Positions 1 through 58,493 of a stretch of DNA of 58,493 bases are shown here, one piece after another. Each line of letters begins with the position of its first letter. Positions within the stretch are counted from its first letter, which is position 1. The stretch comes from a virus, in the IMG/VR virus record IMGVR_UViG_3300029479_000005. One strand, given 5' to 3'. The notes under the pieces were generated by a model. The model did not search any database. It saw only the letters and a program-made list of their open reading frames with translations, and was not told the origin of the DNA. The position numbers and the translations under genes were made by a program.

Positions 1-949
1 AATCGATGCTGAAAAGCACAAATTAGATTATAAACAATCCGAAAAAGACAACGATATAGCCTTGCTAAAGAAAACCTACCAACGCCATCAAAACATGGAT
101 GGAGAAGTAAAGGAGAGTGGGGCATCAACTCTACTATCAAGACGTAAGCAAGAGACTCAAGTGCCTGAAAGAAAAGGTTCAGGAAGAATAAATCAAAAGG
201 GAAAGAGTTGGTATGATCCTACCAAACCTGAGGGAACTATATTATACAAAGAGTCAGGCAGAACATATGTTGATCCGAAGACCGGGAAAACTAAGCAAGC
301 AATGACAAATGTATCGTTGATGTCAGTAATAGACGACGCACATAAGCTGTCATCGGGACACCCTAAGGAAAATGCATATGCTGATTATGCTAATAAAATG
401 AAAGCTATGGCTAACGATGCTCGTAAGGAGGCGGTATATACTGGTAGACTTGCTACTAATGCAAATGCCAAACGTATCTATCAGTCAGAAGTGGATTCAT
501 TAAATGCAAAACTAAATCTTGCCGCACTTAATGCACCGAGAGAAAGAAGAGCTCAAGTTCTTGCTAATTCTGAAGTAAAGGCGAAAAAACAGGCTAATCC
601 TGAATTAGAAAAAGATAAGAAAGCATTGAAAAAAGTAAAACAAATTGCAATTAACAAGGCTCGTATAGCAGTCGGTGCAAGTGGAAAGGGCACACGAATT
701 AACATAACAGACAAAGAATGGGAAGCTATTCAGTCTGGCGCAGTAAGTGATTCTAAATTGACAAAGATACTAAGGTATGCGGATCAAGATGTAATAAGAC
801 AAAAGGCTACCCCTAAGTCTAATGGTGCGCTATCCTCTGCTCAAGTTAGTAGAATCAAAGCTTTGGCTGCATCAGGTTATACAAATGCTGAAATCGCAGA
901 AGTTTTAGGAAAGTCAACATCAACAGTTTCAAAATATCTAAATAGTTGA
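1..949 (+). CDS. C-terminal portion of the wrap-around two-barrel (YonO/beta'-like) RNA polymerase gene. The gene continues from 56587..58493 across the circular junction, giving 918 aa in total. Ends with a sigma-70 region-4-like HTH.
   Basis: I translated frame 2 by hand from 56587 through 58493 and it reads without a stop straight into 62..949. The C-terminus reads SAQVSRIKALAASGYTNAEIAEVLGKSTSTVSKYL, a close match to a sigma region 4 / LuxR-type HTH. Confidence 0.6.
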   Translation, partial: IDAEKHKLDYKQSEKDNDIALLKKTYQRHQNMDGEVKESGASTLLSRRKQETQVPERKGSGRINQKGKSWYDPTKPEGTILYKESGRTYVDPKTGKTKQAMTNVSLMSVIDDAHKLSSGHPKENAYADYANKMKAMANDARKEAVYTGRLATNANAKRIYQSEVDSLNAKLNLAALNAPRERRAQVLANSEVKAKKQANPELEKDKKALKKVKQIAINKARIAVGASGKGTRINITDKEWEAIQSGAVSDSKLTKILRYADQDVIRQKATPKSNGALSSAQVSRIKALAASGYTNAEIAEVLGKSTSTVSKYLNS

Positions 950-965
950 AAGGAAGTGTGAAGTT

Positions 966-1214
966 ATGATTAAATGTGCGTTAACCACAATCGATAATCC
1001 GTTCGATCCATTTGACCAATTCGATCAATGGTATATGTTCGATCTTGACAAAGGTTACAATTCTTGTTCATATTTGGATCGCGTTTCTCATACTTCTGAT
1101 CAATTAAGTGAAGAAGAAAACGATCGTGAAATTGAACGAGCAATTGACGAAATTATTAAATATGATTTTATGAACATTTATAAAAAAGTCACTAAAAAAA
1201 TTAAATCGTCATAG
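966..1214 (+). CDS. hypothetical protein (82 aa)
   Basis: ORF with an upstream GAAAGGAAG ribosome-binding site; no recognisable motifs. Confidence 0.45.
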   Translation: MIKCALTTIDNPFDPFDQFDQWYMFDLDKGYNSCSYLDRVSHTSDQLSEEENDREIERAIDEIIKYDFMNIYKKVTKKIKSS

Positions 1215-1637
1215 AATTTGTTGAGTTTTGAAGTAATTATCATGAAAAACGGCAATATCTAAAAAATAGATGATAATACTTTAACAGAAGTATAAAAGCA
1301 GTTTGACATTTACTGATATGTAATGGTTTTAACCATGTTTGACTATACAACATTGATGTAATAGTATGAAAACATGAGCATTCATTTAATGTGTCATGCT
1401 ATCCTAAACCTCTATTAGTGGAATGTGAATATGTAAGTGTATGTCATCGTTTAGTAATGCTATCATATAAGCTGACATAAAAGAGAGATACTTTTGTGTT
1501 AGTATAAAAGATACAAAATACATTAATAAGCCGATATATTGTATGATAATGAAAATTTTATGATTTAAAAATGCTGGTATAGATAGAATATCATGGTCGA
1601 TAGTCGTTGAATTATAATGTTTGGCTTTGAGGTGTAA

Positions 1638-1709
1638 GGGGGGTTCTCAAAATTAGCACCCCCTCCCTCATCGCCCGCCTCCTTGAAAATTCTCCGGGGG
1701 CAATTTTTG
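1638..1709 (+). promoter_or_regulatory. GC-rich island able to form alternative hairpins: a G6 run (1638-1643) against a C-run (1659-1667), or the C-run against G5 (1696-1700) followed by a T-run (1703-1708). Attenuator- or terminator-like element.
   Basis: The G/C runs are read directly from the sequence, inside an otherwise AT-rich 700-bp non-coding stretch. Confidence 0.3.
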
Positions 1710-1723
1710 AAAAACGTTTTATA

Positions 1724-1859
1724 TTTTCATGTAGTATTCTAAAAGGTTCATAAGGTTGTTGATGCGGTGTTGGTTTTTGTTTGTTTTGGATCGCGCTTAA
1801 CTCCTTTCGGCGAATAGAGTCATATAACTTTATGAACCTCTTTGAGTGCTACATGAAAA
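1724..1859. repeat. Long imperfect inverted repeat: arms of about 30 bp with cores TTTCATGTAG/CTACATGAAA and GGTTCATAA/TTATGAACC, separated by a spacer of about 75 bp. Lies upstream of the small terminase gene.
   Basis: The arms are read directly and match at about 27 of 32 positions. Candidate pac/cos site, operator, or RNA structure. Confidence 0.5.
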
Positions 1860-1914
1860 CTATATAATAATGATAATCTTATAATACCAATCTTTCAGAA
1901 AGGATGACCAAAGT

Positions 1915-2250
1915 ATGGCTAAAATAAAAAAAACAAACGCTATTCCAAATGCCAAGAAAAATAGAGTTGCAACTTCGCCGGAAGCGAGGGAAAATCAACT
2001 TATATCTTTGGCAGTAGATCTTGCTGAGCAGCAATTGAGAGATGGAACAGCATCGTCTCAAGTCATTTCTCACTTTCTTAAGCTGGCTTCAACAAAAGAA
2101 AAGTTAGAACGAGAGATACTTGAAAAACAAAAAGATTTAATAACCGCTAAGACGGAGAATCTTCATTCTGCTCAAAGAATAGAAGAATTATATGAAAACG
2201 CAATGAATGCTTTAAAAGGCTACAGCGGACGAGATGATAGCGATGATTAA
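1915..2250 (+). CDS. putative terminase small subunit (111 aa)
   Basis: Small basic/helical protein immediately upstream of the HNH and large-terminase genes, with a GAAAGGATG ribosome-binding site. The call rests on position, not on motifs. Confidence 0.4.
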   Translation: MAKIKKTNAIPNAKKNRVATSPEARENQLISLAVDLAEQQLRDGTASSQVISHFLKLASTKEKLEREILEKQKDLITAKTENLHSAQRIEELYENAMNALKGYSGRDDSDD

Positions 2251-2653
2251 AACATATTCTGAATTGATAACGTTTGATAGATACATAGATAGATTTAAGT
2301 ATCTTCAATTGAACGGATATGTCGGAAAGGAAACATTTGGGTTCGATAGATATATAAATCAAGCACTCTATCATTCAGCTGAATGGATGAGATTCAGAGA
2401 TAAGGTTATAATCAGAGATTGCGGGTGCGATCTTGCTACGATTGGGTATGAAATATATGGGCCAATAACAATACATCATATTAATCCTATAAGCAGAGAT
2501 GATATTATTAATCGTAATCCATGCGTGTTTGATTTAGAGAATGTTGTATGCACCACAAACGATACCCATAATGCTATACATTACGGAGATGAAAGTTTAT
2601 TAATATGTACACCTAAGGTTCGTACTAAAAACGATACATGTCCGTGGAAATAA
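2234..2653 (+). CDS. HNH endonuclease
   Basis: Cys pairs and the H-N-H pattern are visible: DCGCD...ITIHHINPI...N...VC...HNAIH. Confidence 0.75.
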   Translation: MIAMIKTYSELITFDRYIDRFKYLQLNGYVGKETFGFDRYINQALYHSAEWMRFRDKVIIRDCGCDLATIGYEIYGPITIHHINPISRDDIINRNPCVFDLENVVCTTNDTHNAIHYGDESLLICTPKVRTKNDTCPWK

Positions 2654-2675
2654 TAAAAAAAAGGAGAAAATCAAA

Positions 2676-2993
2676 ATGAGTAAAAACAATAAAATACCAG
2701 AGGAAGTTCTTGAAAAAGAAATTTTGGATGATGAAAACTCGGATTGTGCAGAAACAAAGGTTGATGAGCCGGAAGATAAAAAAACATACGGAATTGTATG
2801 CGGATGCGATAAGCTAAGACTAAGAGCTGAACCAAATGTTGATAGTAGAATAATATCAGAGTTGCCAAAACATACAAGAGTTATCATCGATGAAAATATC
2901 ACTAATGACGAATGGGTTTATGTGGAAACTGAATTTGGATCTGTCGGTTATTGTATGAAAAATTACATAGATCTCAATACAACAGGTGATTGA
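2676..2993 (+). CDS. hypothetical protein (105 aa)
   Basis: ORF with a GGAGAAAATC ribosome-binding site. Confidence 0.45.
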   Translation: MSKNNKIPEEVLEKEILDDENSDCAETKVDEPEDKKTYGIVCGCDKLRLRAEPNVDSRIISELPKHTRVIIDENITNDEWVYVETEFGSVGYCMKNYIDLNTTGD

Positions 2994-3330
2994 TATGACA
3001 GATAGCATATTAACTACTATAAAAAAAATGCTGGGTATATCTGAGGAATACGAGCATTTCGATATCGATATAATAACTCACATTAATTCTACGTTTTCTA
3101 TACTTGCTCAATTAGGAGTTGGACCTGATAAAGGTTTTTCTGTACACGATAAAACTGAAAAATGGTCTGACTATATGCCCGAAAATGCAACACTAGAAAT
3201 GGTAAAAACATATGTTCAGTTAAAAGTAAGAATGCTGTTTGATCCTCCATCGAGTAACGCGGTGTTGGAATCATTTAATAGAACTATACGCGAACTTGAG
3301 TTTCGACTGAATGTTTCTAAAAGTTTTTGA
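2986..3330 (+). CDS. hypothetical protein (114 aa)
   Basis: ORF in the operon context. Confidence 0.45.
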   Translation: MIDMTDSILTTIKKMLGISEEYEHFDIDIITHINSTFSILAQLGVGPDKGFSVHDKTEKWSDYMPENATLEMVKTYVQLKVRMLFDPPSSNAVLESFNRTIRELEFRLNVSKSF

Positions 3331-3355
3331 ATAATCAAGAAGGGAGATGGTATTT

Positions 3356-3775
3356 ATGGAAAACAGTCAACTGTATCATCACGGTATCTTAGGCATGAAA
3401 TGGGGAGTTAGGCGTTTCCAAAATAAAGACGGAAGTTTAACCAGTGACGGAAAAAGACATCTGGAGCAAAATTCAAAAGCTAAACAAGGCAATAATAAAA
3501 AGAAAAAAGGACATACCACCAATAAAGGAAAAAGTATTAATGAGTTAAGCGATGATGAATTAAGAAAACGCATCAATCGTTTGGAACTCGAAAAAAGATA
3601 TGAAGCTTTATCGAAAAAAGAACAAAAGGCTAAAATGTTTGATGGTAAACGATTTGTAACACAAGTTCTTGAAAACTCAGGCAAGGTTGTAGCCACTCAA
3701 TTATCCACATATGTAATGGGAAATATGGTGAATAAGGTAGCTCAAAAAAATATCATCAATGTAAAAAAAGACTAA
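3356..3775 (+). CDS. conserved phage protein with the N-terminal motif HGILGMKWGVRR; Lys-rich C-terminus
   Basis: I prefer the ATG at 3356 because the AAGGGAG ribosome-binding site sits 9 nt upstream of it. The motif resembles small phage proteins commonly found near terminase genes. Confidence 0.5.
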   Translation: MENSQLYHHGILGMKWGVRRFQNKDGSLTSDGKRHLEQNSKAKQGNNKKKKGHTTNKGKSINELSDDELRKRINRLELEKRYEALSKKEQKAKMFDGKRFVTQVLENSGKVVATQLSTYVMGNMVNKVAQKNIINVKKD

Positions 3776-3790
3776 GTAGGTGAATAAATT

Positions 3791-5536
3791 ATGGCATTAT
3801 CAAATACTGCCGTTCCCAAATATTACGGCATGTTTAGAGATGCTGTGATTAGAGGCGAAATACCGGTATGTAAAGAAATTGGCATGGAGATGTATCGGAT
3901 AGACGATCTCATTGCGAATCCCGGAATATATTATGACGATCAGGCAGTTGAGGGCTGGATAAAGTTTTGTGAGGCAGAATTAACTCTAACTGATGGTTCT
4001 GATTTAACATTGCTCGATTCATTTAAATTATGGGGAGAGCAAGTTTTCGGATGGTATTATTTCGTGGATAAAGATGTATACGAACCAAATCCTGATGGAC
4101 ATGGAGGTCATTATGTTCATAAAACTGTGAAAAAGAGACTGATCAACAAGCAATTCTTAATAGTCGGCAGAGGTGCTGCAAAATCACAATATGAATCCTA
4201 TATGCATGAATATTATTTGAATGTTGACACATCGACAACTCATCAAGTGCATACATCTCCGACTATGAGACAAGCCGAAGAAGTGTTGGCACCAATGAGG
4301 ACTGCGATTATGAGAGCACGAGGTCCTTTATTTAAATTTTTAACAGAGGGTTCGTTACAAAATACAACTGGCTCAAAAGCGAACAGAATGAAATTAGCTT
4401 CTACCAAAAAAGGAGTAGAAAATTTTTTGACAGGTTCATTAGTTGAAATTCGACCAATGTCAATAGATAAGCTCCAAGGCTTAAATAGCCGAATAAATAC
4501 TGTCGATGAATGGCTATCGGGAGATGTTCGCGAAGATGTTATAGGTGCGCTTGAACAAGGTGCTTCTAAAAATGACGATTATTTAATAATAGCTGTAAGC
4601 TCAGAGGGAACAGTTCGTAATGGACCGGGCGATACAATCAAAATGGAATTGATGGACATTCTAAAAGGCGAATATGTCAACCCACATGTTTCGATTTGGT
4701 GGTATAAATTAGATTCGGTTGACGAGGTTTCAAATCCTGATATGTGGCTAAAGGCAAATCCCAATTTAGGAAAGACCGTCAGTTATGAAGCATATCAAAT
4801 AGACGTAGAACGAGCCGAAAAAGCACCATCGGCCAGAAATGATATTTTGGCAAAGCGTTTCGGGTTACCTATGGAGGGATACACATATTATTTTACATAC
4901 GAAGAGACTATTCCACATAAAAAAAGAGAGTATTGGCAGTTGTCGTGTGCATTAGGTGCTGACCTATCACAAGGTGATGATTTTTGTGCGTTTACTTTTT
5001 TATTCCCATTAGGTAATGGACGTTTTGGAGTTAAAACTCGAAACTATATTTCCGAAATAAAATTGATGAAATTGCCACAAGCAATGCGTGCAAAATACGA
5101 ACAATTTATTAATGAAGGTAGCTTGGCCGTATTGCCTGGCGTTGTACTTGATATGATGGAAGTTTATGAAGATTTGGATAAATTTATAGCAGAAAACGAA
5201 TACGATGTTTGTTGTCTCGGATTCGATCCATATAACGCAAAAGAGTTTATTGCCAGATGGACTGCTGAAAATGGACCATTCGGAATTGAAAAAGTAATTC
5301 AAGGTGTAAAAACTGAATCAGTACCTTTGGGAGAATTGAAAAAATTAGCCGAAGAGAGATTATTGCTTTTTGACGAAGAACTGATGTCATGGGCAATGGG
5401 GAATAGTATAGTCATGGAAGACACTAACGGTAATAGAAAACTTCTAAAAAAAAGATACGAGGAAAAAATCGATGCTGTCGCAGCTATGATGGATGCTTTT
5501 GTTGCATTCAAGATAAATAGAGAAGCATTCGAATAA
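3791..5536 (+). CDS. terL: terminase large subunit
   Basis: Walker A-like LIVGRGAAKS near the N-terminus; a C-terminal nuclease-like region with acidic residues; typical 581-aa size. Confidence 0.8.
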   Translation: MALSNTAVPKYYGMFRDAVIRGEIPVCKEIGMEMYRIDDLIANPGIYYDDQAVEGWIKFCEAELTLTDGSDLTLLDSFKLWGEQVFGWYYFVDKDVYEPNPDGHGGHYVHKTVKKRLINKQFLIVGRGAAKSQYESYMHEYYLNVDTSTTHQVHTSPTMRQAEEVLAPMRTAIMRARGPLFKFLTEGSLQNTTGSKANRMKLASTKKGVENFLTGSLVEIRPMSIDKLQGLNSRINTVDEWLSGDVREDVIGALEQGASKNDDYLIIAVSSEGTVRNGPGDTIKMELMDILKGEYVNPHVSIWWYKLDSVDEVSNPDMWLKANPNLGKTVSYEAYQIDVERAEKAPSARNDILAKRFGLPMEGYTYYFTYEETIPHKKREYWQLSCALGADLSQGDDFCAFTFLFPLGNGRFGVKTRNYISEIKLMKLPQAMRAKYEQFINEGSLAVLPGVVLDMMEVYEDLDKFIAENEYDVCCLGFDPYNAKEFIARWTAENGPFGIEKVIQGVKTESVPLGELKKLAEERLLLFDEELMSWAMGNSIVMEDTNGNRKLLKKRYEEKIDAVAAMMDAFVAFKINREAFE

Positions 5537-26488: not shown

Positions 26489-26959
26489 GTGAATGTATAT
26501 AAAAAGATAAGGCAAGAAAGCGGATTATCCAGAGAAGAAGTATGTGCTATGACAGACGACAACGGAGTACGAAAGATTGATGCATCACGACTTGAACGTA
26601 TCGAAAATGATAAGTTACGCATTTATCCGAACGAAGTAGTAATTTTATCTGAAGTTTATGATAAACCTATGTTGTGTAATAAATATTGCACAGAGGAATG
26701 TGAAATAGGTAAACGATATGTTTTTCCTATTGCTGACAAAGAATTGGAACTGGAAAAAATAGTTTTACCGTTAATTGCATCACTAAATTCTATAAAACGT
26801 CAACAGGAAAGGTTAATAGAAATAAGTTCAGACGGTAAAATTGATGAGAGTGAACTAAGCGATTTTGTGAAAATCGAAACCGAACTTCAAAATATTTCGA
26901 AATCTATCGAAACTTTAAAAATTTGGACAGAAAAAGAACTTAAACATACGCAAAAATAA
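26489..26959 (+). CDS. XRE-family HTH transcriptional regulator with a C-terminal coiled coil (156 aa; GTG start)
   Basis: The N-terminus KKIRQESGLSREEVCAMT… matches the XRE HTH pattern; GGTGGGGG ribosome-binding site. Confidence 0.6.
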   Translation: MNVYKKIRQESGLSREEVCAMTDDNGVRKIDASRLERIENDKLRIYPNEVVILSEVYDKPMLCNKYCTEECEIGKRYVFPIADKELELEKIVLPLIASLNSIKRQQERLIEISSDGKIDESELSDFVKIETELQNISKSIETLKIWTEKELKHTQK

Positions 26960-27042
26960 CAGCTCCTATTATGGAAAGGAGTGATAAGTTATGATTACTT
27001 GTGAATATGGAATCAAACGTATAAAGAAATAAACAAAAACCA

Positions 27043-33946: not shown

Positions 33947-34270
33947 CTAAAAATACATTTTTAAAAGTCTATTTTTTTCACTTAGCCAACGATTCATAGT
34001 CATCTCGCAAGGATAGTCTTCGTATCCTAGAGTTTCAGGAGTAATCAGACCTTCAATTACACCAATGATTATTTCAGACTCATATTCTTTATATGGTATT
34101 ATTGAACTTGGGAGCTCTCTATGTAACGATTTACACGAACTGCAACGAAGTCTACGAATTACAATCTTTTTAGTTTTCCCTCTTTTTGTTTTCACTGTTC
34201 TTTTTACACTGTCGTAATATTTCAACTTATTTTTACAAATAGGACAATATTTTTCATTTATTTTAATCAT
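33947..34270 (-). CDS. zinc-ribbon protein (CPICK…CSSCKS), co-oriented with the integrase; candidate recombination directionality factor or regulator
   Basis: Two CxxC pairs and a basic region; the functional call rests on position only. Confidence 0.45.
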   Translation of the reverse strand: MIKINEKYCPICKNKLKYYDSVKRTVKTKRGKTKKIVIRRLRCSSCKSLHRELPSSIIPYKEYESEIIIGVIEGLITPETLGYEDYPCEMTMNRWLSEKNRLLKMYF

Positions 34271-34283
34271 GACGTAACATATT

Positions 34284-34313
34284 TTAACACTAATACGCGA
34301 AATTTACAAGGCG
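34284..34313 (+). promoter_or_regulatory. member of the repeated promoter-like motif family (TACGCGAAA-N10-TATTATGAAG)
   Basis: Copy 1 of 11; lies upstream of the tRNA-like element. Confidence 0.35.
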
Positions 34314-34316
34314 TAT

Positions 34317-34390
34317 TATGAAGAGAAAGACATTAGCTCAGTTGGTAGAGCGGCAGATATATCTATCTGAGGGTCGCAAGTTCGATTCTT
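34317..34390 (+). tRNA. tRNA-like element: canonical D-arm (GCTCAGTTGGTAGAGC) and T-arm (GCAAG-TTCGATT-CTTGC), but an imperfect acceptor stem and a non-canonical anticodon loop. Either a phage-encoded tRNA, or the 3' tRNA-derived part of attP.
   Basis: Folded by eye. The acceptor stem has 2 mismatches. The anticodon stem CAGAT/ATCTG closes a 6-nt loop ATATCT. Confidence 0.4.
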
Positions 34391-34545
34391 GCATGCCATT
34401 CTCTTTTTTATAAAACCAACATCGTAATTTATATTTAGGAAAGGAGTTTTTTTGATTACAGAAAAAAGTGGATATTTCCACTCGATGTGTTTTTACAAGA
34501 AGTCATTTTTAAGCTAGAATAGCAGTTGAAAGGAGACGAACGCAG

Positions 34546-35248: not shown

Positions 35249-35294
35249 ACCTACGCATATTTATCATATCCTATTATGATAGGAGGAGATAAAT

Positions 35295-35633: not shown

Positions 35634-35663
35634 GCACGAAAAAAACATATCTCTTTATGAAGA
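35634..35663 (+). promoter_or_regulatory. promoter-like motif family member (GCACGAAAAAAACA-N6-CTTTATGAAG)
   Basis: Copy 2 of 11. Confidence 0.3.
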
Positions 35664-36063: not shown

Positions 36064-36092
36064 CCGCATAAAAAACAGTTTCTTTTATGGAA
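36064..36092 (+). promoter_or_regulatory. promoter-like motif family member (CCGCATAAAAAACA…TTTTATGGAA)
   Basis: Copy 3 of 11. Confidence 0.3.
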
Positions 36093-36654: not shown

Positions 36655-36685
36655 TCCGCAAAATTTACAAGGCATATTATGAAAG
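36655..36685 (+). promoter_or_regulatory. promoter-like motif family member (CCGCAAAATTTACAAGGCATATTATGAAAGG)
   Basis: Copy 4 of 11; almost identical to copy 1. Confidence 0.35.
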
Positions 36686-37296: not shown

Positions 37297-37326
37297 TACG
37301 CATAAAAAACAATGTGTATTATGGAA
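37297..37326 (+). promoter_or_regulatory. promoter-like motif family member (TACGCATAAAAAACAATGTGTATTATGGAA)
   Basis: Copy 5 of 11. Confidence 0.35.
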
Positions 37327-37622: not shown

Positions 37623-37654
37623 ACGCACGATAAACACTCCCTTTTATGAAAGGA
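37623..37654 (+). promoter_or_regulatory. promoter-like motif family member (TACGCACGATAAACA…TTTTATGAAAGG)
   Basis: Copy 6 of 11. Confidence 0.3.
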
Positions 37655-37870: not shown

Positions 37871-37900
37871 ACGCGAAAAAAACAATGTGTATTATGGAAA
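37870..37900 (+). promoter_or_regulatory. promoter-like motif family member (TACGCGAAAAAAACAATGTGTATTATGGAA)
   Basis: Copy 7 of 11; consensus copy. Confidence 0.35.
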
Positions 37901-38216: not shown

Positions 38217-38236
38217 GATGGGAGGAGGTGAATAGA

Positions 38237-38995: not shown

Positions 38996-39025
38996 ACACG
39001 CGTAAATAACAATCTCTATTATGAA
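38996..39025 (+). promoter_or_regulatory. promoter-like motif family member (CACGCGTAAATAACAATCTCTATTATGAAG)
   Basis: Copy 8 of 11. Confidence 0.3.
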
Positions 39026-39554: not shown

Positions 39555-40316
39555 ATGTCTAAAAATTTGTCAATGATAACGAAAAATATAGGCAGAAAAT
39601 TAAAAAAGCACAGCCCTGAAATATTAACAGGTATAGGAATTGCAGGTATGATTTCGGCTACGGTGATGGCTGTGAGAGCAACTCCCAAAGCTTTACAAAA
39701 TATTGAACATGAAAAAAAAGAGCAGAATGTAACTAAGTTACCACTTATTGAAATGGCAAAATGTACTTGGAAATCTTATATTCCATCAGCGGTAACTATA
39801 ATTGTTTCTTCGGTATGCTTAGTTGGTGCTTCTACTGTTAGCTTTAAAAGAAACACTGCTTTAGCAACTGCTTATGCTATGACAGAGGCTACATTAAAAA
39901 GCTACCAAGAAAAAGTAGTGGAAACTATAGGTGAAAAGAAAGCAGACGCAATAAAAACGAAAGTTGTAAAAGAAAAGATGGATAGCAATCCGATAAATAA
40001 TAAAGAGGTGATAATTACAACCAAAGGAGATACACTTTGTTATGATTCAGTGAGTGGTCGATATTTTAAATCAGATATAGACACTATTAAAAAAATAGTA
40101 AATGAACTAAACAGGCGAATGCTTAGCGAGTCGTATATATCTTTGAATGATTTCTATTATGAACTCGGGTTGAGTTTTACTAAAATGGGTGACCAATTAG
40201 GTTGGAATATAGATAGAGGTCTAATAGATATATCATATGTGCCACTATTGGCGGACGATGGAAATCCGTGTTTAGCTATGGAGTACACAGTTTCACCGGA
40301 GTACGATTATTGTTAA
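39555..40316 (+). CDS. 2-TM membrane protein, paralogue B (253 aa)
   Basis: Motifs KKHSPEILTGIGIAGMISATVMAVRATPKA and …LNDFYYELG…LGWNIDRG. Confidence 0.6.
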   Translation: MSKNLSMITKNIGRKLKKHSPEILTGIGIAGMISATVMAVRATPKALQNIEHEKKEQNVTKLPLIEMAKCTWKSYIPSAVTIIVSSVCLVGASTVSFKRNTALATAYAMTEATLKSYQEKVVETIGEKKADAIKTKVVKEKMDSNPINNKEVIITTKGDTLCYDSVSGRYFKSDIDTIKKIVNELNRRMLSESYISLNDFYYELGLSFTKMGDQLGWNIDRGLIDISYVPLLADDGNPCLAMEYTVSPEYDYC

Positions 40317-40322
40317 ATTAAA

Positions 40323-40352
40323 TACGCGAAAAAAACAATGTGTATTATGGAA
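40323..40352 (+). promoter_or_regulatory. promoter-like motif family member (TACGCGAAAAAAACAATGTGTATTATGGAA)
   Basis: Copy 9 of 11; identical to copy 7. Confidence 0.35.
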
Positions 40353-41999: not shown

Positions 42000-42941
42000 A
42001 TGAATGCGAAAATTACAATAAATAGAATAGGATTACAAATAAAAAAACACAGCCCTGAAATCATGATGGTTGCAGGTGTTGTAGGAACTGTTGTGGGCGC
42101 TGTTATGGCTTGTAAAGCAACTACTAAAATCGATGATATATTGAACGAGACAAAAAACAACGTTGACAAGATACACGCTGCTGAAGAAAAAGGCCAAATA
42201 ACTACCGATAAAGATGGTGAACTTATAATTGAGGAGTATACAGCGGACGATTGTAAAAAAGACTTAAGTATAACATACGCCAAAACAGGTCTGGAATTAG
42301 CTAAGATTTATGCGCCGGCAGTCGTGTTAGGAGCAATAAGCATCGCGTCCATATTAGCTGCTCATAATGTACTTCGTAAGCGTAACGTTGCTTTGATGGC
42401 TGCATACACGGCTATCGATAATAATTTTAAAGATTATCGCAAACGTGTTATCACCAGATTTGGTGAGAAAATCGATAAAGAGCTAAAGTGCGGAGTGAGA
42501 ACGGAAAACGTTACCGAAACAATTGTAGATGAAAATGGTGAAGAAAAAACTGTTGAAAAAACAGTTACAATAGTTGATGATGTAACAACATCAGAGTATA
42601 GACGTGTTTTCGATGCCGGTAATGCGGGTTGGGAAAAAGATGCAGACCATAATCTTTTCTTCTTAAGATCAGTTCAAAATTGGGCAAATGAGGTTTTAAA
42701 AGATAGAGGGCATATTTTTTTAAACGAGTTGTACGATCAACTCGGATATGAAAGAACAAAAGCGGGACAAATCGTCGGATGGGTTTATAGACCGGACGAT
42801 GTTGAGTATAAAGGTGATGGCTATGTTGATTTTGGAATTTATGATTATACACAGCAGGTAAATCGCAATTTCTTGGACGGAGACGACCCAACAGTTATAT
42901 TAACATTTAATGTGGACGGACCAATATATGATCTGATATAG
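42000..42941 (+). CDS. 2-TM membrane protein, paralogue C (313 aa)
   Basis: Motifs KKHSPEIMMVAGVVGTVVGAVMACKATTK and …LNELYDQLG…IVGW. Confidence 0.6.
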   Translation: MNAKITINRIGLQIKKHSPEIMMVAGVVGTVVGAVMACKATTKIDDILNETKNNVDKIHAAEEKGQITTDKDGELIIEEYTADDCKKDLSITYAKTGLELAKIYAPAVVLGAISIASILAAHNVLRKRNVALMAAYTAIDNNFKDYRKRVITRFGEKIDKELKCGVRTENVTETIVDENGEEKTVEKTVTIVDDVTTSEYRRVFDAGNAGWEKDADHNLFFLRSVQNWANEVLKDRGHIFLNELYDQLGYERTKAGQIVGWVYRPDDVEYKGDGYVDFGIYDYTQQVNRNFLDGDDPTVILTFNVDGPIYDLI

Positions 42942-45090: not shown

Positions 45091-45258
45091 ATGGACAAAA
45101 CAATTATCGAACTACATATGACGGTAGATCGTTTAAAAAATATTGAAGAATGCTTGAACAAACAAATCGCATTTCGAAGAAAAGTAACAGTGGCAGTTTT
45201 GCTTGCAGGAACTTATGTAATTTATAAAAAGATAAGGAGTAAACAGAATAATGATTGA
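45091..45258 (+). CDS. small protein with a C-terminal TM (55 aa); overlaps the polymerase start
   Basis: Translated by hand; GGAGGTGA ribosome-binding site 6 nt upstream. Confidence 0.35.
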   Translation: MDKTIIELHMTVDRLKNIEECLNKQIAFRRKVTVAVLLAGTYVIYKKIRSKQNND

Positions 45259-48200
45259 CTTTATGATTGTTGCTACGAAGTGCAGCAAAAAAGGCGTGAT
45301 TGAAATATATCCAAAGTTCATCATTAAAAAGAGTTCCGATCTTATGATTCGAGGAGGCGATTTCTATGCTATTTGGATTGAAGAACGGGGACTATGGTCC
45401 ACGGACGAGCAAGATGCATTACAATTAATAGATAAGGAGCTAGATACATTTGCTAAAGAAAACAAAGACCGTTTTGAAGGAACTGTAAAGATATTGCATA
45501 TGTGGGACGCCGAGTCCGGTATGATAGACTCATGGCACAAGTATTGTCAAAAACAAATGAGAGACAATTTTCACATGCTTGACGAAAAACTTATATTTTC
45601 AAACAGTCCCACAAATAAAAAAGATTATGCAAGCAAACGACTTAATTATCCTCTGGAAAAAGGGGATATTTCAGCGTATGATAAATTAATGTCTACTTTA
45701 TATTCGGAAGAAGAACGCCATAAGATCGAATGGGCTATTGGTTCAATTGTGGCGGGAGATTCTAAACATATTCAAAAATTTATGGTTCTATATGGTGCGG
45801 CGGGTACGGGTAAATCAACAGTTTTAAATATTATACAACAATTATTTCAGGGTTACTATTCGGTATTTGATGCAAAAGCATTGGGATCGAGTAGTAACTC
45901 TTTTGCGTTAGAGGCATTTAAAACGAACCCCCTAGTTGCTATTCAACATGACGGTGATTTATCTAGAATTGAGGATAATACCAGATTAAACAGTTTGGTG
46001 TCGCATGAGCTCATGACCGTAAACGAAAAATTTAAATCAACATATTCAAATCAGTTCAAATGTTTCTTATTTATGGGTACGAATAAACCAGTTAAAATCA
46101 CAGATGCAAAGTCGGGGTTGATTCGAAGATTGATCGATGTTTCTCCATCTGGAAATAAATTGAATTCGAAAGAGTACAAAACAATAGTGAAACAAGTTGG
46201 GTTTGAATTAGGAGCTATTGCTGACTATTGTTTGAATTTATATTTAGACAATACAGGATATTATGACGATTACGTACCTATAAGTATGATGAGTGCATCT
46301 AATGACTTTTATAATTATATAATGGATTCATATTATGTATTCGCTAAAGAAAACGGCACAACATTGAAAGCGGCTTGGGAAATGTACAAGCAGTATTGTG
46401 ATGAGGCAAAAGTACCTTATCCGTTATCACAAAGAGCTTTTAAGGAAGAGCTAAAGAATTACTTTAAGGATTATAAAGAACGTCATACGTTAAGTGATGG
46501 CGTTCGTGTCAGGTCATATTATAGTGGTTTCAAAACTGAAAAAATCGATAATTTAACTGTTATTGATGCCGAGAAAAAAAATGACAGCTATTTAATTGTA
46601 TTTGATAAACAGGAATCTATATTTGATAAAGAATGTGCCGGTTGCGTTGCGCAATACGCAACCAGTAATGAAACTCCATATGAAAGTTGGGATAATGTCA
46701 CAACAAAATTGGAAGAACTCGATACATCGAAACTTCATTACGTTAAACTCCCAGTAAATCATATAGTTATAGATTTCGATATTAAAGACGAATACGGTAA
46801 AAAATCATTTGAGAAGAATCTAGAGGCGGCTAGTAAATGGCCGGCTACTTATGCCGAATTAAGTAAAAGCGGAGCAGGTATTCATCTTCATTATATTTAC
46901 ACAGGAGATCCAACACGCCTGAGTAGAATATATGACGAAGATATAGAAATTAAAGTTTTTATAGGAAAAAGTTCATTAAGACGTAAACTGTCTAGGTGTA
47001 ATGATTTACCTATTGCAACAATTAGCTCTGGATTACCATTGAAAGGAGAAAACAAAATGATAAATATAGAAGCTGTTAAAAGCGAAAAGGGACTTAGAAC
47101 ATTAATAAAGCGTAATCTTAATAAAGAAATCCATCCAGCAACAAAACCGAGTATTGATTTTATACATAAAATATTGGACGATGCTTATAATAGTGGTTTG
47201 AAATATGACGTTACCGATATGAGAAATGCTATACTAGCGTTTGCTGCTAATAGTACAAATCAATCGGATTACTGTATAAAGCTTGTAAGTAAAATGAATT
47301 TTAAATCAGAGGAACCATCTGTCGGAAAAAATAATGACGATGCAAAGCTTATTTTCTACGATGTAGAAGTCTTCCCTAATTTATTCTTAGTCAATTGGAA
47401 ATTTGAGGGTAAGGGTAAGCCTGTTGTACGGATGATTAATCCGTCACCGGCTGAGGTAGAAGAACTTATGAGATTCAGACTGGTTGGGTTTAACTGCCGA
47501 AGATATGATAACCATATACTCTACGCACGGCTAATGGGTTATACAAATGAACAGTTGTATAATTTATCACAGAAAATAATTAATGGCAGTCCCAATTGTT
47601 TCTTTGGAGAGGCATACAATGTATCATATACAGATGTTTATGATTTTTCAAGTAAAAAACAATCATTAAAGAAGTTTGAAATTGAATTGGGTATTCACCA
47701 TCAGGAACTCGGATTGCCTTGGGATCAACCGGTACCTAAAGAATTATGGGCAAAAGTTGCAGAATACTGTGATAACGATGTTATTGCAACGGAAGCTGTA
47801 TTTAATGCCAGAAAAGCAGATTTTATTGCCAGAGAGATATTAGCTGATGTGGCGGGCATGACTGTGAACGATACAACAAATTCTCTTACAACCAGAATTA
47901 TATTTGGTAAGAACAGAAAGCCGCAGGATCAATTTAATTATCGTGATATGGGACTCCCATCGAGTGATGATATTCTAATGGACGGTTTTGATGATTATAC
48001 CAGATTTGATAATCAGAATAGACCTATATTTCCAGGTTATGAATTTAAATTCGGAAAATCCATGTATAGAGGTGAAGAAATCGGTGAGGGAGGATATGTG
48101 TATTCCGAACCAGGTATGTATAGTAACATTGCGCTATTGGATATTGCTTCTATGCATCCGAGTAGCATTATAGCTGAACAGTTATTTGGCTGCGAATATA

Positions 48201-49234
48201 CAAAACGGTTTCAGGAAATAAGAGATGCTCGTGTTGCAATTAAGCACAATGATTTTGAGACTGCCAAAACAATGCTGGATGGAAAGTTAGCAAAGTATCT
48301 TACAGACGAGGGAGCTGCAGCAGATTTGGCACAAGCTTTGAAAATCGCTATTAATTCAGTTTACGGTTTAACAGCAGCAAAATTTGATAATCCATTTAAA
48401 GATAATCGAAATGTCGATAATATTGTCGCAAAACGTGGCGCTTTATTCATGGTTAACCTAAAACATGAAGTACAAGCAAGAGGATTCACAGTTGCTCATA
48501 TAAAAACCGATTCAATAAAAATTCCAAATGCAACGTCTGAAATTATTCAGTTTGTATCGGATTATGGTAAAATGTATGGTTATATATTTGAGCATGAGGC
48601 TACATACGACAGAATGTGTCTTGTAAATGATGCTGTTTATATCGCAAAGTATAAAGACGGAAAGCATGCCGGAGAATGGACTGCCACGGGAACACAGTTT
48701 CAAGTACCATATGTATTCAAAACGCTGTTTAGTAAAGAAGACATTGCTTTTGAGGATATGTGCGTAACAAATAGTGTGACTTCTAGTTTATATTTGGATA
48801 TGAATGAGAAATTGCCTCAATTAACAATTGAAGAGGAAAAAGAATTAGCAAAATTACATAAGGCTTTGGATTCTGAAGATTCTGAGAATATGGAAAAAGT
48901 GCTTAAGTCGTATAGGTATGATGCTGAATATGCCAGCGAAAGATATTCTGAACTTCGTAAAAAAGAGGAAGAATCGCATAACTATGTATTTATCGGAAAA
49001 GTCGGGCAATTTTGCCCTATAAAACAGGGATGTAATGGCGGACTTTTAATGAGAGAAAAAGACGGCAAATATTATGCCGCAGGAGGTAGTAAGGGATACA
49101 GATGGCTTGAAGCCGAGATGGTAAAGGAACTCGGAAAAGAAGCGGATATCGATCGCTCTTATTATGAAAATATGGTCAACGATGCCATTTGTGATATTTC
49201 ACAATATGGTGATTTTGAATGGTTTGTAAATTAA
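45251..49234 (+). CDS. fused SF3 helicase - archaeo-eukaryotic (AEP) primase - family-B DNA polymerase with a 3'-5' exonuclease (1327 aa)
   Basis: SF3 helicase: Walker [10 protein letters not shown] and motif C FMGTN. AEP primase: IDFDIKD and [11 protein letters not shown]. Exonuclease: ExoI FYDVEVF, ExoII FNCRRYD, Exo[11 protein letters not shown]. Polymerase B: motif [10 protein letters not shown], motif [10 protein letters not shown], motif C IKTDSI. Confidence 0.8.
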
Positions 49235-52086: not shown

Positions 52087-52764
52087 ATGAATATGGTAAA
52101 TTGGGCAGAAAATGAAGTGAAAATTGCTTGCGAAAAAGAGCATCCTGGTCTTAAAGAGGGAGAATTTGATTACGGTTGTGCATGCTATCAGAGTGCATTA
52201 AAGGCTTATAAAAGTTTAGCCGAAGATGGTCATAGTGGATATAGTTGGGGTGTAACTGCATCTATTCTAAAAAGATTGATGGACAATAAGCCATTAACTT
52301 CTATTGAGGATACGGATGATACTTGGTCTCGTGTTACATGTGGAAAAGATGATCGCACTGAGTATCAATGCAAAAGAAAAGCATCGTTGTTTAAGACTAT
52401 TTATGACGACGGTAGAATCGAATACCGTGATCGTGATCAATTTATTTGCGTTGATATTCATGATGGAAGTACATACATATTAGGTCTTATTAACAATGTT
52501 ATGCGAGAAAAATTTCCTATAACTTTCCCCTATATGCCTGGAAATGCTATCGAGGTATACTGCGAGGATTTTTTGACAGATCCTAAGAATGGTGCTTTTG
52601 ATACTGTCGGGATTATATATTGCAAGACTGATGATGGTAAAGAGGACATAAAAAGATATTTTAAAAAATCTTCTAACGATAGTGGTTGGGAAGAAATTAA
52701 TTTTGACGAGTATATGAAGAGAAAGGTAATGGCTGATAAGCTAAAGGAGAGCAAAGATGATTAA
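52087..52764 (+). CDS. hypothetical protein (225 aa)
   Basis: ORF only. Confidence 0.45.
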   Translation: MNMVNWAENEVKIACEKEHPGLKEGEFDYGCACYQSALKAYKSLAEDGHSGYSWGVTASILKRLMDNKPLTSIEDTDDTWSRVTCGKDDRTEYQCKRKASLFKTIYDDGRIEYRDRDQFICVDIHDGSTYILGLINNVMREKFPITFPYMPGNAIEVYCEDFLTDPKNGAFDTVGIIYCKTDDGKEDIKRYFKKSSNDSGWEEINFDEYMKRKVMADKLKESKDD

Positions 52765-54329: not shown

Positions 54330-54360
54330 TCGCGAAAAATGCAATCACTCTTATGAAAGG
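54330..54360 (+). promoter_or_regulatory. promoter-like motif family member (TCGCGAAAAATGCAATCACTCTTATGAAAGG)
   Basis: Copy 10 of 11. Confidence 0.3.
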
Positions 54361-55661: not shown

Positions 55662-55692
55662 TACGCGAAAAAAACATGCCCTTTTATGGAGA
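55662..55692 (+). promoter_or_regulatory. promoter-like motif family member (TACGCGAAAAAAACATGCCCTTTTATGGAGAG)
   Basis: Copy 11 of 11. Confidence 0.3.
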
Positions 55693-55763: not shown

Positions 55764-56054
55764 ATGTTAGAGAGAAATTTCCAAGCTAAATTAAAAAAAG
55801 AGCTTAAAGAAATGTTCCCAGGTTGTATAGTTACAAAAAACGATGCTAACGACATTCAAGGATTACCCGATTTAACAATATTTTATAAAGATAAATGGGC
55901 GACTCTGGAATGCAAAAAATCAGCGAACGAAAGGAAACGACCAAATCAAGAATATTACGTGGACAGAATGAATGAGATGTCATTCTCAAGATTTATTTGT
56001 CCAGAGAATAAGGAGGAAGTATTGAATGAACTTCAACAAGCATTCAAATCTTGA
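55764..56054 (+). CDS. VRR-NUC domain nuclease (PD-(D/E)XK fold)
   Basis: GLPDLTIFYKDKWATLECK carries the PD…E.K signature; 96 aa. Confidence 0.6.
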   Translation: MLERNFQAKLKKELKEMFPGCIVTKNDANDIQGLPDLTIFYKDKWATLECKKSANERKRPNQEYYVDRMNEMSFSRFICPENKEEVLNELQQAFKS

Positions 56055-56583
56055 AGGTAGGCATGCTTTCTTAGGTGCTAGTAAATATCATTGGATTAGA
56101 TATTCTGATGATAAAATAGCAGAATCGTATTCTAAATTTCTCGCTATTCAAAGAGGAACTGAGTTACATGAATTTGCGGCACAATGTATAAGATTATCGC
56201 AAAAACTTCCGAGATCTAAGAAAACCTTGAATTCTTATGTAAATGATGCTATAGGTTTCAGAATGATACCTGAACAAATTTTATATTATTCAGATAATTG
56301 TTTTGGTACAGCTGATGCTATTATATTTAAAAACAACTTTTTAAGAATACACGATTTGAAGACCGGAGTGATTCCGGCACATATGGAGCAGTTACGAATA
56401 TATGCTGCTCTTTTTTGTTTGGAATATGGAATTAAACCGGGTGAAATTGGTATGGAACTTCGAATTTATCAAAACGACGAAATTATATACGATGTTCCTA
56501 CCGCCGAAGATATTGCACCTATAATGGATCGAATAGTTGTTTCCGATAAGATTATAACGAAAATGAAAGAACGAGAGGAGTAA
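56026..56583 (+). CDS. PD-(D/E)XK-family nuclease (YqaJ/Cas4-like exonuclease fold)
   Basis: Carries D…E.K (TADAIIF…IHDLKTG) and an N-terminal GASKYH. Confidence 0.45.
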   Translation: MNFNKHSNLEGRHAFLGASKYHWIRYSDDKIAESYSKFLAIQRGTELHEFAAQCIRLSQKLPRSKKTLNSYVNDAIGFRMIPEQILYYSDNCFGTADAIIFKNNFLRIHDLKTGVIPAHMEQLRIYAALFCLEYGIKPGEIGMELRIYQNDEIIYDVPTAEDIAPIMDRIVVSDKIITKMKEREE

Positions 56584-56586
56584 GTC

Positions 56587-58493
56587 ATGAGTATTATAGA
56601 CGAAATAAAATCATATTTTGGTTGTGGTTCCAGTGGTAAGGCTTTAGCCCATTATGGTACACCACGACACTCAGGACGTTACCCGTGGGGGAGTGGAGAA
56701 AATCCGTTTCAACATAGCGGAGATTTTCTATCTAGAATAGATGAACTAAAAAAATCTGGTATGACAGAAACGGAAATCGCACATGAATTGGGTTTAAGCA
56801 CTACCCAATATAGAGTGCAAAAACAATTAGCCTCGCATGAGCGACGACAGTTAGAAGTAGATCGTGCTAAATCGTTAAGAGCAGATGGTAAATCTCTTAA
56901 TGAAATAGCAAAGATTATGGGCTATAATAATGATTCGTCCATTCGTTCACTTTTAAACGACAATACTGCTGAAAGAGCAAATCGTGCTCAAAAAGCAGCT
57001 GATGTTTTAAAAAAAGAACTACAGAAAAAAGGAATGATAGACGTAGGTGCTGGTGCAGAGCGAGAGATTGGTATATCGGAAAATACTATGAAAGAAGCTC
57101 TTTATATTTTGGAACGTGAGGGATACAACGTTTATGGTGTAGGAATTCCTCAAGTGACCAATGCCCATCAGCAATCGAACACTAAAGTTTTGTGTAATCC
57201 GGAAATTGAATATAGAGATGTATATCAAAATATGGGTGATGTGCAATCTTTGGGCAATTATCATTCTACTGATGGTGGTGTGACATTCAACGAATTGAAA
57301 AAGCCAACTAGTATAGATTCTAAAAGAATTAGTATATGCTATGGTGATGAGGGCGGTTTGAATAAGGACGGTGTCATTGAAATAAGACGTGGTGTACCCG
57401 ATTTGGATTTAGGAAATTCACACTATGCACAAGTACGTATACTTGTAGACGGTACACATTATTTGAAAGGCATGGCTATGTATTCCGATGATATTCCAGA
57501 TGGAGTAGATATTGTGTTTAATACAAATAAAAAGTCGGGAACCGATAAAATGAATGTGTTAAAACCAATAAAAGATGATCCTGAAAATCCGTTTGGTGCA
57601 TTGATTAAAGCCAATGGTCAAAGTGAATATATAGATCCCAAAGATGGAACTAAAAAACTTTCTGCCATTAACAAACTTAAGGAAGAGGGGGATTGGGATA
57701 CGATGTCAAGAAATCTGTCCCAGCAATTTTTATCGAAGCAACCTTTGAGTTTGATAAAGAAACAGCTGGATTTAACATATGCAGATAGAGAGGCTGAATA
57801 CTCGGAGATAAAATCTCTTACTAATCCGACAGTAAAAAAGAAAATGTTAATGGATTTTGCAAATGATTGTGATGCAGCGGCGGTACATCTACAGGCTGCA
57901 GCATTACCTAGGCAGAATACCCAGGTTATTCTACCTATATCGGCAATGAAAGAAACAGAAGTATATGCTCCTAACTATAAAAACGGCGAACAGGTGGCAT
58001 TAATTCGTTTTCCTCATGGCGGTACATTTGAAATACCGGTATTGACGGTTAATAATAAAAATCCGTCAGCAAAAAGGATATTGGGAAACGTTACAGATGC
58101 CGTAGGAATAAATGCTAAAGTAGCTGAACGACTATCGGGGGCTGATTTCGACGGTGACCAAGTAGTAGTTATTCCTACTAATAATAAGGTTCGTATAAAA
58201 TCAACACCGCCGTTAAAAGATTTGGAGGGATTCGATCCTAAGACTCAGTATGCTTACCATGAGGGGATGAAAGTCATGACTAAAAGTGAAACCCAAAAAC
58301 AAATGGGTATAGTATCCAATCTTATAACTGATATGACACTACGGGGGGCACCTGAGAAAGATATAGCTAAAGCTGTAAAACATAGTATGGTAGTAATCGA
58401 TGCTGAAAAGCACAAATTAGATTATAAACAATCCGAAAAAGACAACGATATAGCCTTGCTAAAGAAAACCTACCAACGCCATCAAAACATGGA
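56587..58493 (+). CDS. N-terminal and central portion of the wrap-around two-barrel RNA polymerase. It runs off the window end and continues at 1..949. It contains two HTH motifs, a beta-like barrel motif, and a beta'-like catalytic motif.
   Basis: The hand translation has no stop through 58493. HTH motifs: MTETEIAHELGLSTTQYRVQKQL and KSLNEIAKIMGYNNDSSIRSLL. Beta-like barrel: GGLNKDGVIEIRRG. Beta'-like: LIRFPHGGTFEIPVLTV…GADFDGDQVVVIPT (compare beta' NADFDGDQMAVHVP). Confidence 0.6.
   Translation, partial: MSIIDEIKSYFGCGSSGKALAHYGTPRHSGRYPWGSGENPFQHSGDFLSRIDELKKSGMTETEIAHELGLSTTQYRVQKQLASHERRQLEVDRAKSLRADGKSLNEIAKIMGYNNDSSIRSLLNDNTAERANRAQKAADVLKKELQKKGMIDVGAGAEREIGISENTMKEALYILEREGYNVYGVGIPQVTNAHQQSNTKVLCNPEIEYRDVYQNMGDVQSLGNYHSTDGGVTFNELKKPTSIDSKRISICYGDEGGLNKDGVIEIRRGVPDLDLGNSHYAQVRILVDGTHYLKGMAMYSDDIPDGVDIVFNTNKKSGTDKMNVLKPIKDDPENPFGALIKANGQSEYIDPKDGTKKLSAINKLKEEGDWDTMSRNLSQQFLSKQPLSLIKKQLDLTYADREAEYSEIKSLTNPTVKKKMLMDFANDCDAAAVHLQAAALPRQNTQVILPISAMKETEVYAPNYKNGEQVALIRFPHGGTFEIPVLTVNNKNPSAKRILGNVTDAVGINAKVAERLSGADFDGDQVVVIPTNNKVRIKSTPPLKDLEGFDPKTQYAYHEGMKVMTKSETQKQMGIVSNLITDMTLRGAPEKDIAKAVKHSMVVIDAEKHKLDYKQSEKDNDIALLKKTYQRHQNM

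Follow-up and report, generated by a model that had tools for sequence, protein, structure and literature searches.

The 58,493-nucleotide stretch of viral DNA analysed here (IMG/VR record IMGVR_UViG_3300029479_000005; hereafter the window) carries, wrapped around its ends, a gene for a 918-residue protein that is probably a single-chain two-barrel RNA polymerase flanked by helix-turn-helix (HTH) modules. Bases 1-99 of the window are identical to 58395-58493, 99 being the longest terminal overlap, and the window is a circularly closed contig of a 58.4-kb genome. Joining 56587..58394 to 1..949 gave an open reading frame (ORF) of 918 codons with the first stop at 947-949, the length given in the original prediction, which had been made from the sequence and proposed a polymerase of the YonO or β′ type with built-in HTH domains resembling sigma region 4. 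The four peptides quoted for the protein were all found (GLNKDGVIEI at residue 257, LIRFPHGGTFEIPVLTV at 472, GADFDGDQVVVIP at 518 and YTNAEIAEVLGKSTSTVSKYL at 896). An independent Logan contig (L092) carries the 918-residue gene internally, with neither a stop codon nor a frameshift at the junction. The circularized segment 55587..58394+1..4000 aligned with L092 in a single high-scoring segment pair (HSP) of 6,759 bp at 98.5% identity; because this alignment is colinear across the junction and the gene lies inside L092, the junction is real and not an illusion of assembly. A 918-residue sequence that is 99.6% identical to the window protein (P0001; four residues differ) is the representative of a cluster, formed at 90% identity, with 472 members. 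The gene is the last of the replication module: it follows an endonuclease gene and a Cas4-like exonuclease gene and stands just before a probable cos gap and the structural genes. Features are listed in Table 1.

Both a structural model calculated with AlphaFold2 and the assessment of residue invariance were based on 112 aligned homologues, which come from three clades and have identities as low as 40%. The model has a mean predicted local distance difference test (pLDDT) score of 83.9 and a predicted template-modelling (pTM) score of 0.76; the prediction is poor for residues 1-44 and 224-237 only. When the model was used as the query against the PDB in Foldseek, QDE-1 ranked first (E = 3.4e-8), followed by P74-26 gp62 (1.3e-5) and Arabidopsis RDR2 (6.3e-5), with crAss gp66 and the largest subunits of RNA polymerase II and of the bacterial, archaeal and African swine fever virus polymerases at lower ranks. 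Fold comparison against BFVD returned phage proteins annotated as RNA-dependent RNA polymerase (RdRP) as well as P23-45 gp64. The overall core fold of the two-barrel superfamily was thus recovered by Foldseek from the predicted model. Searches of the PDB sequences with phmmer (using the protein) and hmmsearch (using a core profile) found nothing relevant; the relationship is therefore visible to fold comparison only. Both the barrels and the HTH folds anticipated by the original prediction are present in the model. Given these fold matches and a real junction, none of the three findings that were to count against that prediction was made: a lack of structural similarity to double-psi beta-barrel (DPBB) polymerases, a non-barrel fold such as Toprim around the DFDGD segment, or a stop codon or frameshift at the junction.

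The catalytic residues agree with the fold, which is of the QDE-1 and P74-26 gp62 type: the D-x-D-x-D and R-x-P signatures of a two-barrel polymerase are both present and invariant. The loop D520-F-D522-G-D524 is conserved in 112/112 homologues and aligns with the DNDGD loop of YonO; across the three + strand frames D[FYLIVM]DGD is found a single time, and its invariance in 112 homologues argues that it is no chance match. Ruprich-Robert and Thuriaux (PMC2919709) described eight residues common to all two-barrel polymerases, which in QDE-1 are D709, R738, K743, R962, P964, D1007, D1009 and D1011; the R-x-P counterpart in Rpb1 is R446 and P448. D261, R284, K294-G295, R474, P476, D520, D522 and D524 of the window protein follow one another in that order and are each invariant in all 112 homologues. 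R474 and P476 precede D520 by 46 residues, the R-to-D spacing in QDE-1 being 45, and the D-to-K spacing of the β-like barrel, counted along the sequences, is 33 here versus 34 in QDE-1. The E. coli β segments GYNFEDS and RHGNKG presumably resemble GLNKDGV and THYLKG of this protein. The two long helices after the catalytic barrel (residues 566-609) align with G593 and N597 of YonO.

Selection appears to act on catalysis, since the two barrels and the following two helices are the most conserved segments of the protein, with mean column identities of 0.73-0.80 compared with 0.58-0.66 for the winged helix and three of the four three-helix HTH modules. The sole recurrent Pfam family other than HTH families is RdRP (PF05183), which is matched at E <= 0.01 by 35/52 members (best E = 2.8e-5); the window protein itself scores 17.4 bits, under the gathering threshold of 23.8. 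We put at roughly 0.7 the probability that the wrap-around gene encodes a single-chain two-barrel RNA polymerase that is a distant homologue of the β/β′ core and of the eukaryotic RNA interference (RNAi) polymerases and serves the phage as a DNA-dependent transcriptase.

The relation to YonO of the Bacillus prophage SPβ, a single-chain DNA-dependent RNA polymerase that transcribes the SPβ late genes, is more distant than the label 'YonO-type' implied. The YonO family shows the residue pattern D249-G, R266, K271-G, R492-x-P494 and D535/537/539, and the two proteins share the invariant order D-G...R...K-G...R-x-P-H...D-x-D-G-D...G-x-x-S-N as well as a single chain of 840-920 residues. To this extent the label holds; membership of the YonO family does not. 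The best relevant BLASTP HSP against YonO has E = 1.3, although RxPH and DxDGD are in register in one HSP. In hhalign, the family profile gave no match to the single YonO sequence, and against a six-member YonO profile it gave E = 3.8e-4 with a probability of 36%, over residues 450-583 with YonO 469-602, covering the DxDGD barrel only. No overlap was found between the sets of phage records with YonO-like proteins and with window-family proteins, and YonO has no Pfam HTH match. Because BLASTP was nonsignificant, the profile match was confined to one barrel, the record sets were disjoint and YonO lacked an HTH match, the two proteins are, by sequence, members of distinct sister families within the same superfamily. 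YonO is likewise encoded by a Firmicutes prophage, in a gene just upstream of the late operon; here the two are comparable by gene position only. QDE-1 and plant RDR2 (PF05183) share 12-14% identity with the window protein; they are eukaryotic, lack the HTH modules and use mainly single-stranded RNA or DNA templates. The Thermus phage non-virion RNA polymerases P23-45 gp64 and P74-26 gp62 are smaller (about 600 residues), have no HTH ends and use a GC-rich promoter, and their sequence similarity to the window protein is not detectable.

The protein matches PHROG 4291 ('RNA-dependent RNA polymerase') with 1241.7 bits, residues 18-917 aligning with profile positions 10-906 of 909. It was found by tblastn in 250 deposited phage records, 249 of which cover at least 80% of it. 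Identity is 55% to gp55 of Faecalibacterium phage FP_oengus, annotated 'putative RNA polymerase', 44-50% to Arthrobacter, Gordonia, Streptomyces and Curtobacterium phages and 37-39% to Lactococcus 1706-like phages; coverage in tblastn against deposited phages is 97-100%, the homology running end to end, and homologues in actinophages (Arthrobacter, Gordonia, Streptomyces) are full-length at about 50% identity. At least 1,215 clusters (50% identity) match at E <= 1e-30 in a library holding 1.84 billion representatives, and the best 150 of these are all 870-1070 residues long and cover the whole profile. Relatives are encoded in 310 stretches of GTDB species-representative genomes, the best 80 of which belong mostly to gut Clostridia, some of them cultured strains; among cultured gut isolates, relatives are present in Hungatella hathewayi, [Ruminococcus] torques ATCC 27756 and Faecalibacterium prausnitzii. 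The identity of the protein does not exceed 70% with any GTDB species representative or 55% with any deposited phage, and 18 kb of the window gave no megablast match to deposited phages. Koert et al. (bioRxiv 10.1101/842583) described the FP_oengus gp55 family as RdRP-like, with HTH domains at each terminus, reported an HHpred match to Pfam RdRP (95.7%) and noted the DxDGD motif as common to the gp55 family and the YonO-like and crAss-like polymerases. Papers from 2024 and 2026 only repeat the annotation of the family, and one 2026 paper takes the label 'RNA-dependent RNA polymerase' to mean an RNA-virus enzyme; most actinophage GenBank records call the homologues 'helix-turn-helix DNA-binding domain protein'. 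The window protein has the same architecture as the gp55 and actinobacteriophage family (N-terminal HTH, RdRP-like DxDGD core, C-terminal HTH) and shows no essential difference from it apart from its new sequence. On these alignments it is a further member of the known, annotated PHROG 4291/FP_oengus gp55 family and founds no new one.

HTH modules surround the RdRP-like core at both termini in all family members. Pfam HTH_38 (46 bits), HTH_23 and Sigma70_r4_2 match residues 879-917 of the window protein, and there are weak HTH matches at residues 48-124. The model shows three-helix bundles at residues 47-131, a winged helix at 150-203 and two further bundles at 836-917, so that the HTH claim stands for both ends of the chain. 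The assignment of the last module to sigma-70 region 4 finds a Sigma70_r4_2 match in its favour but was too specific, as HTH_38 is the best match and the structural match is a transposase HTH. No Pfam match to Sigma70_r2 was found in the 918-residue protein, and region 3 reached only E = 0.31. Ahead of the first module, an N-terminal peptide HYG-x-x-R-x-SGRYPWGSG-x-x-P (residues 18-40; 56638-56706) is conserved like the catalytic barrels, with a mean column identity of 0.79 and H22, G24, S29, G30, R31 and P33 invariant; it lies in a segment with pLDDT < 50.

The repeated 14-mer reported in the original prediction was recovered, with nine matches at no more than two mismatches versus 1.35 expected, all on the + strand. 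Its core was redefined as CGC-N7-ACA-N7-T(T/A)ATGR, and the 13 sites located by a weight matrix, which fall at 26.9 kb, 34.3-40.3 kb and 54.3-55.7 kb, are likewise confined to the + strand. In five cases a start codon follows the site after 17-19 nt, the ribosome-binding site standing 2-3 nt past the G. Terminators are frequent (15 predicted in 7 kb versus 2.4 expected), and several sites directly follow one. A tRNA-like gene (34327-34400, + strand; Rfam tRNA 39.2 bits) begins 6 nt past another site. The upstream terminators, the ribosome-binding-site spacing and the tRNA-like gene mark the motif as a promoter with a start site at its 3′ end; it is therefore described here as a promoter-like element, at which transcription would start at or just after the G. 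ARAGORN reports the tRNA-like gene as 'tRNA-???', with a two-base anticodon, an abnormal anticodon-loop size and acceptor-stem mismatches, and FP_oengus (L001; 2935-3006) has the same odd gene with the same motif arrangement. The terminator hairpin GAGTCCTAACAAGG(A/G)CTC with its T-run is reused at six + strand places between 35598 and 39220, and the early region is divided into numerous short units, each with a terminator, a motif, a ribosome-binding site and a small gene. A diverged look-alike of the motif, with a spacer 1 nt longer, lies near 1808-1838.

The motif recurs in relatives together with the polymerase. About 76/80 Clostridial prophage loci (55-70% protein identity) have a + strand motif of 30-46 bits, in most cases about 950 nt before the polymerase start and ahead of the endonuclease gene. 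FP_oengus has 12 sites; the strict form CGCG(T/A)A(A/G)A(A/T)(A/T)ACA-N5-TATAATG occurs five times in Arthrobacter phage Mudcat, four times in the early region and once before the endonuclease gene; Streptomyces phage Bilo has TCGCAnGTTTTnCnnGCnTATAATGAGACCCCTAC in five early intergenic copies. For the reverse test, the bare pattern was searched against 2.9 million IMG/VR contigs, and 67 of the first 80 loci returned carry gene homologues of this phage group, nearly all 67 with the syntenic site before endonuclease, exonuclease and polymerase. Motif and polymerase thus co-occur across phyla, which is consistent with a conserved phage protein recognizing the motif; the HTH-bearing polymerase is the obvious candidate. 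The co-occurrence makes the polymerase a more plausible reader of the motif and is no proof of it. No report of the motif was found in the literature; what is new here is this conserved promoter-like motif co-occurring with the polymerase, the polymerase family having been recognized previously. The phiKZ non-virion RNA polymerase starts at the G of TATG in its late promoters (T-A-T-G, G = +1), and the window motif likewise closes with an invariant T(T/A)ATG, after which come purines; the phiKZ enzyme is multisubunit and its promoters have no conserved upstream box, so that the likeness is a lead only.

The following mechanism can be proposed. By analogy with YonO, P23-45 gp64 and crAss gp66, the phage enzyme would transcribe DNA. 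Its two barrels would bind two Mg2+ ions and the nucleoside triphosphate, and the fused HTH modules would stand in for a sigma factor and place the enzyme on phage promoters, for which the motif defined above is the best candidate. The upstream box may be read by a phage HTH, and the TTTTATG class of sites, including that at 55664, would depend on the phage enzyme. The 55664 promoter would drive the endonuclease, exonuclease, polymerase and small downstream gene in a positive feedback, and its transcript may run across cos into the late genes on circular or concatemeric DNA; such read-through is possible because no + strand terminator was predicted in window 1-4000. In its full form the proposal is that promoter specificity would here, for the first time in a two-barrel RNA polymerase, reside in the same chain: the terminal HTH modules would read CGC-N7-ACA while the barrels open the DNA and start at T(T/A)ATG, this pair of about 28 bp would have been kept from actinobacteriophages to human-gut Clostridia prophages, and the enzyme would drive most phage promoters including that of its own operon. 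We offer it tentatively and at less than even odds. How single-chain two-barrel polymerases find promoters is an open question, explicitly left so for YonO, and this family is large, yet labelled 'HTH DNA-binding protein' or 'RNA-dependent RNA polymerase'. The window gene is one more member of a recognized family; the added value lies in the definition of the motif, which together with a compact polymerase gives a directly testable system for promoter recognition and could serve as an orthogonal transcription tool in Gram-positive bacteria.

Several points tell against the polymerase and its proposed promoter. The motif sites are concentrated downstream of the integrase gene, before small early-looking genes, the expression of which would have to precede a non-virion polymerase. 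TATTAT in 8/13 window sites and TATAAT in the actinophage sites (Mudcat, Bilo) are acceptable sigma-A -10 hexamers, and they stand at the right distance from the 5′ end of the tRNA-like gene. In only 7/48 relatives does a motif follow the polymerase gene within 5 kb, ahead of the late genes, and in the structural region (window 1-26 kb) the weight matrix gave no site of 12 bits or more; the motif was accordingly rejected as a general late-operon promoter. Its reader could be another conserved phage protein. For the enzyme itself, D261, R284 and K294 are candidate counterparts in the β-like barrel, judged solely by residue order, spacing and invariance, and no experimental study of the PHROG 4291 family was found in the literature. 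The location of the sites, their hexamers and the 7/48 count would suit an alternative that accepts the RNA polymerase but denies it the motif, which would be an early-class promoter of the host sigma-A enzyme, perhaps with a phage activator on the CGC...ACA box at about -30 as at the T4 MotA middle promoters, while the phage enzyme uses some other, late promoter. Such an arrangement is a serious possibility, short of an even chance. It is opposed by the lack of a conserved -35 element, CGC and ACA sitting at the position of the spacer, and by 110 distinct sites from relatives, in which a T replaces the would-be essential -11 A in 88/110 and the base following the hexamer is always G (110/110). 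TTTTAT is the hexamer of the polymerase-operon site and of most sites in relatives; with TTTTATG at most of the latter, no -35 element and conserved bases in the spacer, a canonical sigma-A promoter was rejected as the general reading. The motif is, moreover, kept between phages of Actinobacteria and Clostridia and nearly confined to polymerase-carrying genomes.

The reading of the enzyme as a DNA-dependent transcriptase was also weighed against three other roles. It might copy RNA, making double-stranded or antisense RNA for regulation or counter-defence, since its closest solved structures are the RNAi polymerases QDE-1 and RDR2 and RdRP is its only non-HTH Pfam match. This is unlikely: the characterized phage members of the fold (YonO, P23-45 gp64 and gp96, crAss gp66) are all DNA-dependent transcriptases, the four or five fused HTH and winged-helix modules are of a type that usually binds duplex DNA, and RNA-silencing partners are not evident in the genome. 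A role in replication, through primers or an origin-activating transcript, is suggested by the position of the gene at the end of the replication module, adjoining the endonuclease and the Cas4-like exonuclease, and by a paper on Streptomyces phage Scarif that places the homologue in the replication cluster. We consider it rather improbable, as the phage has its own 1327-residue replicase, the Bilo counterpart of which is annotated DNA primase/polymerase and which looks, by appearance only, like the 1706 GP55 type with its own primase domain, and as the gene stands at the late-gene boundary, like YonO relative to its late operon. That the protein is mainly a DNA-binding regulator with an inactive polymerase-like core would accord with the many GenBank annotations as an HTH protein and the strong HTH matches in all members, but is hardly credible when the catalytic aspartates, R-x-P and basic residues are invariant across phyla and the barrels are conserved above the HTH modules.

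Table 1. Positions of the polymerase gene, its predicted domains, the promoter-like motif sites and the adjoining genes in the window.
Feature	Position	Strand	Remarks
Polymerase gene, 5′ part, residues 1-635	56587..58493	+	Runs to the window end; last 99 bases duplicate 1-99
Polymerase gene, 3′ part	1..949	+	1-99 are assembly overlap; stop codon 947-949
Two tandem three-helix HTH modules, residues 47-131	56725..56979	+	T72, T73 and R76 of first recognition helix invariant or nearly so
Winged-helix-like module, residues 150-203	57034..57195	+	
First barrel (β-like, DPBB-B), residues 245-366	57319..57684	+	Invariant G257, D261, G262 (GLNKDG), R284...H291-x-x-K294-G295
Second barrel (β′-like, DPBB-A), residues 444-531	57916..58179	+	Invariant R474-x-P476-H477, D520-F-D522-G-D524 (58144-58158)
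Two long helices after catalytic barrel, residues 566-609	58282..58413	+	Invariant M573, G574, S577, N578, L579, H599...D605, K608, H609
Two C-terminal HTH modules, residues 836-917	698..943	+	Last one is the HTH_38/Sigma70_r4_2 match
Motif site	26949..26974	+	Downstream of tail genes; merges into ribosome-binding site
Motif site	34296..34321	+	Ends 6 nt upstream of tRNA-like gene
Motif site, weak (12.4 bits)	35254..35279	+	
Motif site, CAC replaces CGC	35635..35660	+	Right after terminator hairpin
Motif site	36065..36090	+	
Motif site	36657..36682	+	
Motif site	37299..37324	+	
Motif site	37624..37649	+	Right after terminator hairpin
Motif site, exact 14-mer	37872..37897	+	Right after terminator hairpin
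Motif site	38999..39024	+	Merges into ribosome-binding site
Motif site, exact 14-mer	40325..40350	+	
Motif site	54331..54356	+	Directly into ribosome-binding site and 63-residue ORF
Motif site, CGCGAAAAAAACATGCCCTTTTATGG	55664..55689	+	About 920 nt upstream of polymerase start; syntenic copy in nearly all relatives
Endonuclease (VRR-Nuc-like)	55764..56054	+	First gene of endonuclease-exonuclease-polymerase block
Cas4-like exonuclease (phrog_3953)	56026..56583	+	Directly upstream of polymerase gene
82-residue protein (phrog_4303)	966..1214	+	Homologue adjoins polymerase gene in many IMG/VR loci (tblastn)

The genome is that of a temperate siphovirus with 35% G+C, in which nearly all genes lie on the + strand apart from that of the tyrosine integrase (32643-33875, - strand). 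Small early-looking genes occupy 34.5-45 kb, and 45-56 kb holds the replicase, a helicase-sized gene (407 residues), which gave no family match, and other DNA-metabolism genes. The replication genes are followed by the endonuclease, Cas4-like exonuclease, polymerase and 82-residue genes and a 700-bp gap, after which come an HNH endonuclease gene, the large terminase gene and large ORFs including one of 3241 residues, with an amidase (probable endolysin) farther downstream. The neighbourhood is conserved in relatives, with nucleases upstream, the small gene downstream and the genome end and structural genes near. FP_oengus has the same gene order as the window; the right end of the linear genome carries this nuclease-polymerase-small-gene block in both Arthrobacter phage Mudcat and Streptomyces phage Bilo; in Lactococcus phage P118 the polymerase and the small downstream gene are kept, with a lysin gene upstream instead of the nucleases. 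The small gene downstream of the polymerase is thus also present in FP_oengus, Mudcat, Bilo and P118; its 82-residue product, which has no Pfam match, is a candidate accessory factor. The non-coding gap (1215-1914) before the first late gene contains a G+C-rich stretch at about 1640-1685 in an otherwise A+T-rich genome. It is probably a cos or packaging region, because relatives have linear ends there.

The ORF of 3241 residues (11509-21234, + strand) is a probable tape-measure protein at the position of the FP_oengus tape measure. A fusion of tape measure and polymerase, as in P23-45 gp96, was considered and rejected: a DxDGD-type loop is lacking from this ORF, in which DDDTD at residue 2092 is the sole D.D.D string. 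The 1327-residue replicase (45251-49234, + strand) has a D5-like NTPase domain (DUF5906); in outward appearance it resembles the 'four-in-one' GP55 replicase of lactococcal phage 1706. No repressor was recognized by Pfam among the proteins scanned near the integrase gene, beside which a DUF6431 protein (33947-34270, - strand) also has weak zinc-ribbon matches. A 488-residue protein (28973-30439, + strand) has an Mtd_N (major tropism determinant N-terminal) domain. Three paralogous DUF6353 proteins are encoded in the early region (38228-38995, 39555-40316 and 42000-42941, + strand), and FP_oengus also has three. A 225-residue protein (52087-52764, + strand) matches Pfam Tad3, a Type I Thoeris inhibitor, with E = 5.6e-31 and is probably the product of an anti-defence gene.

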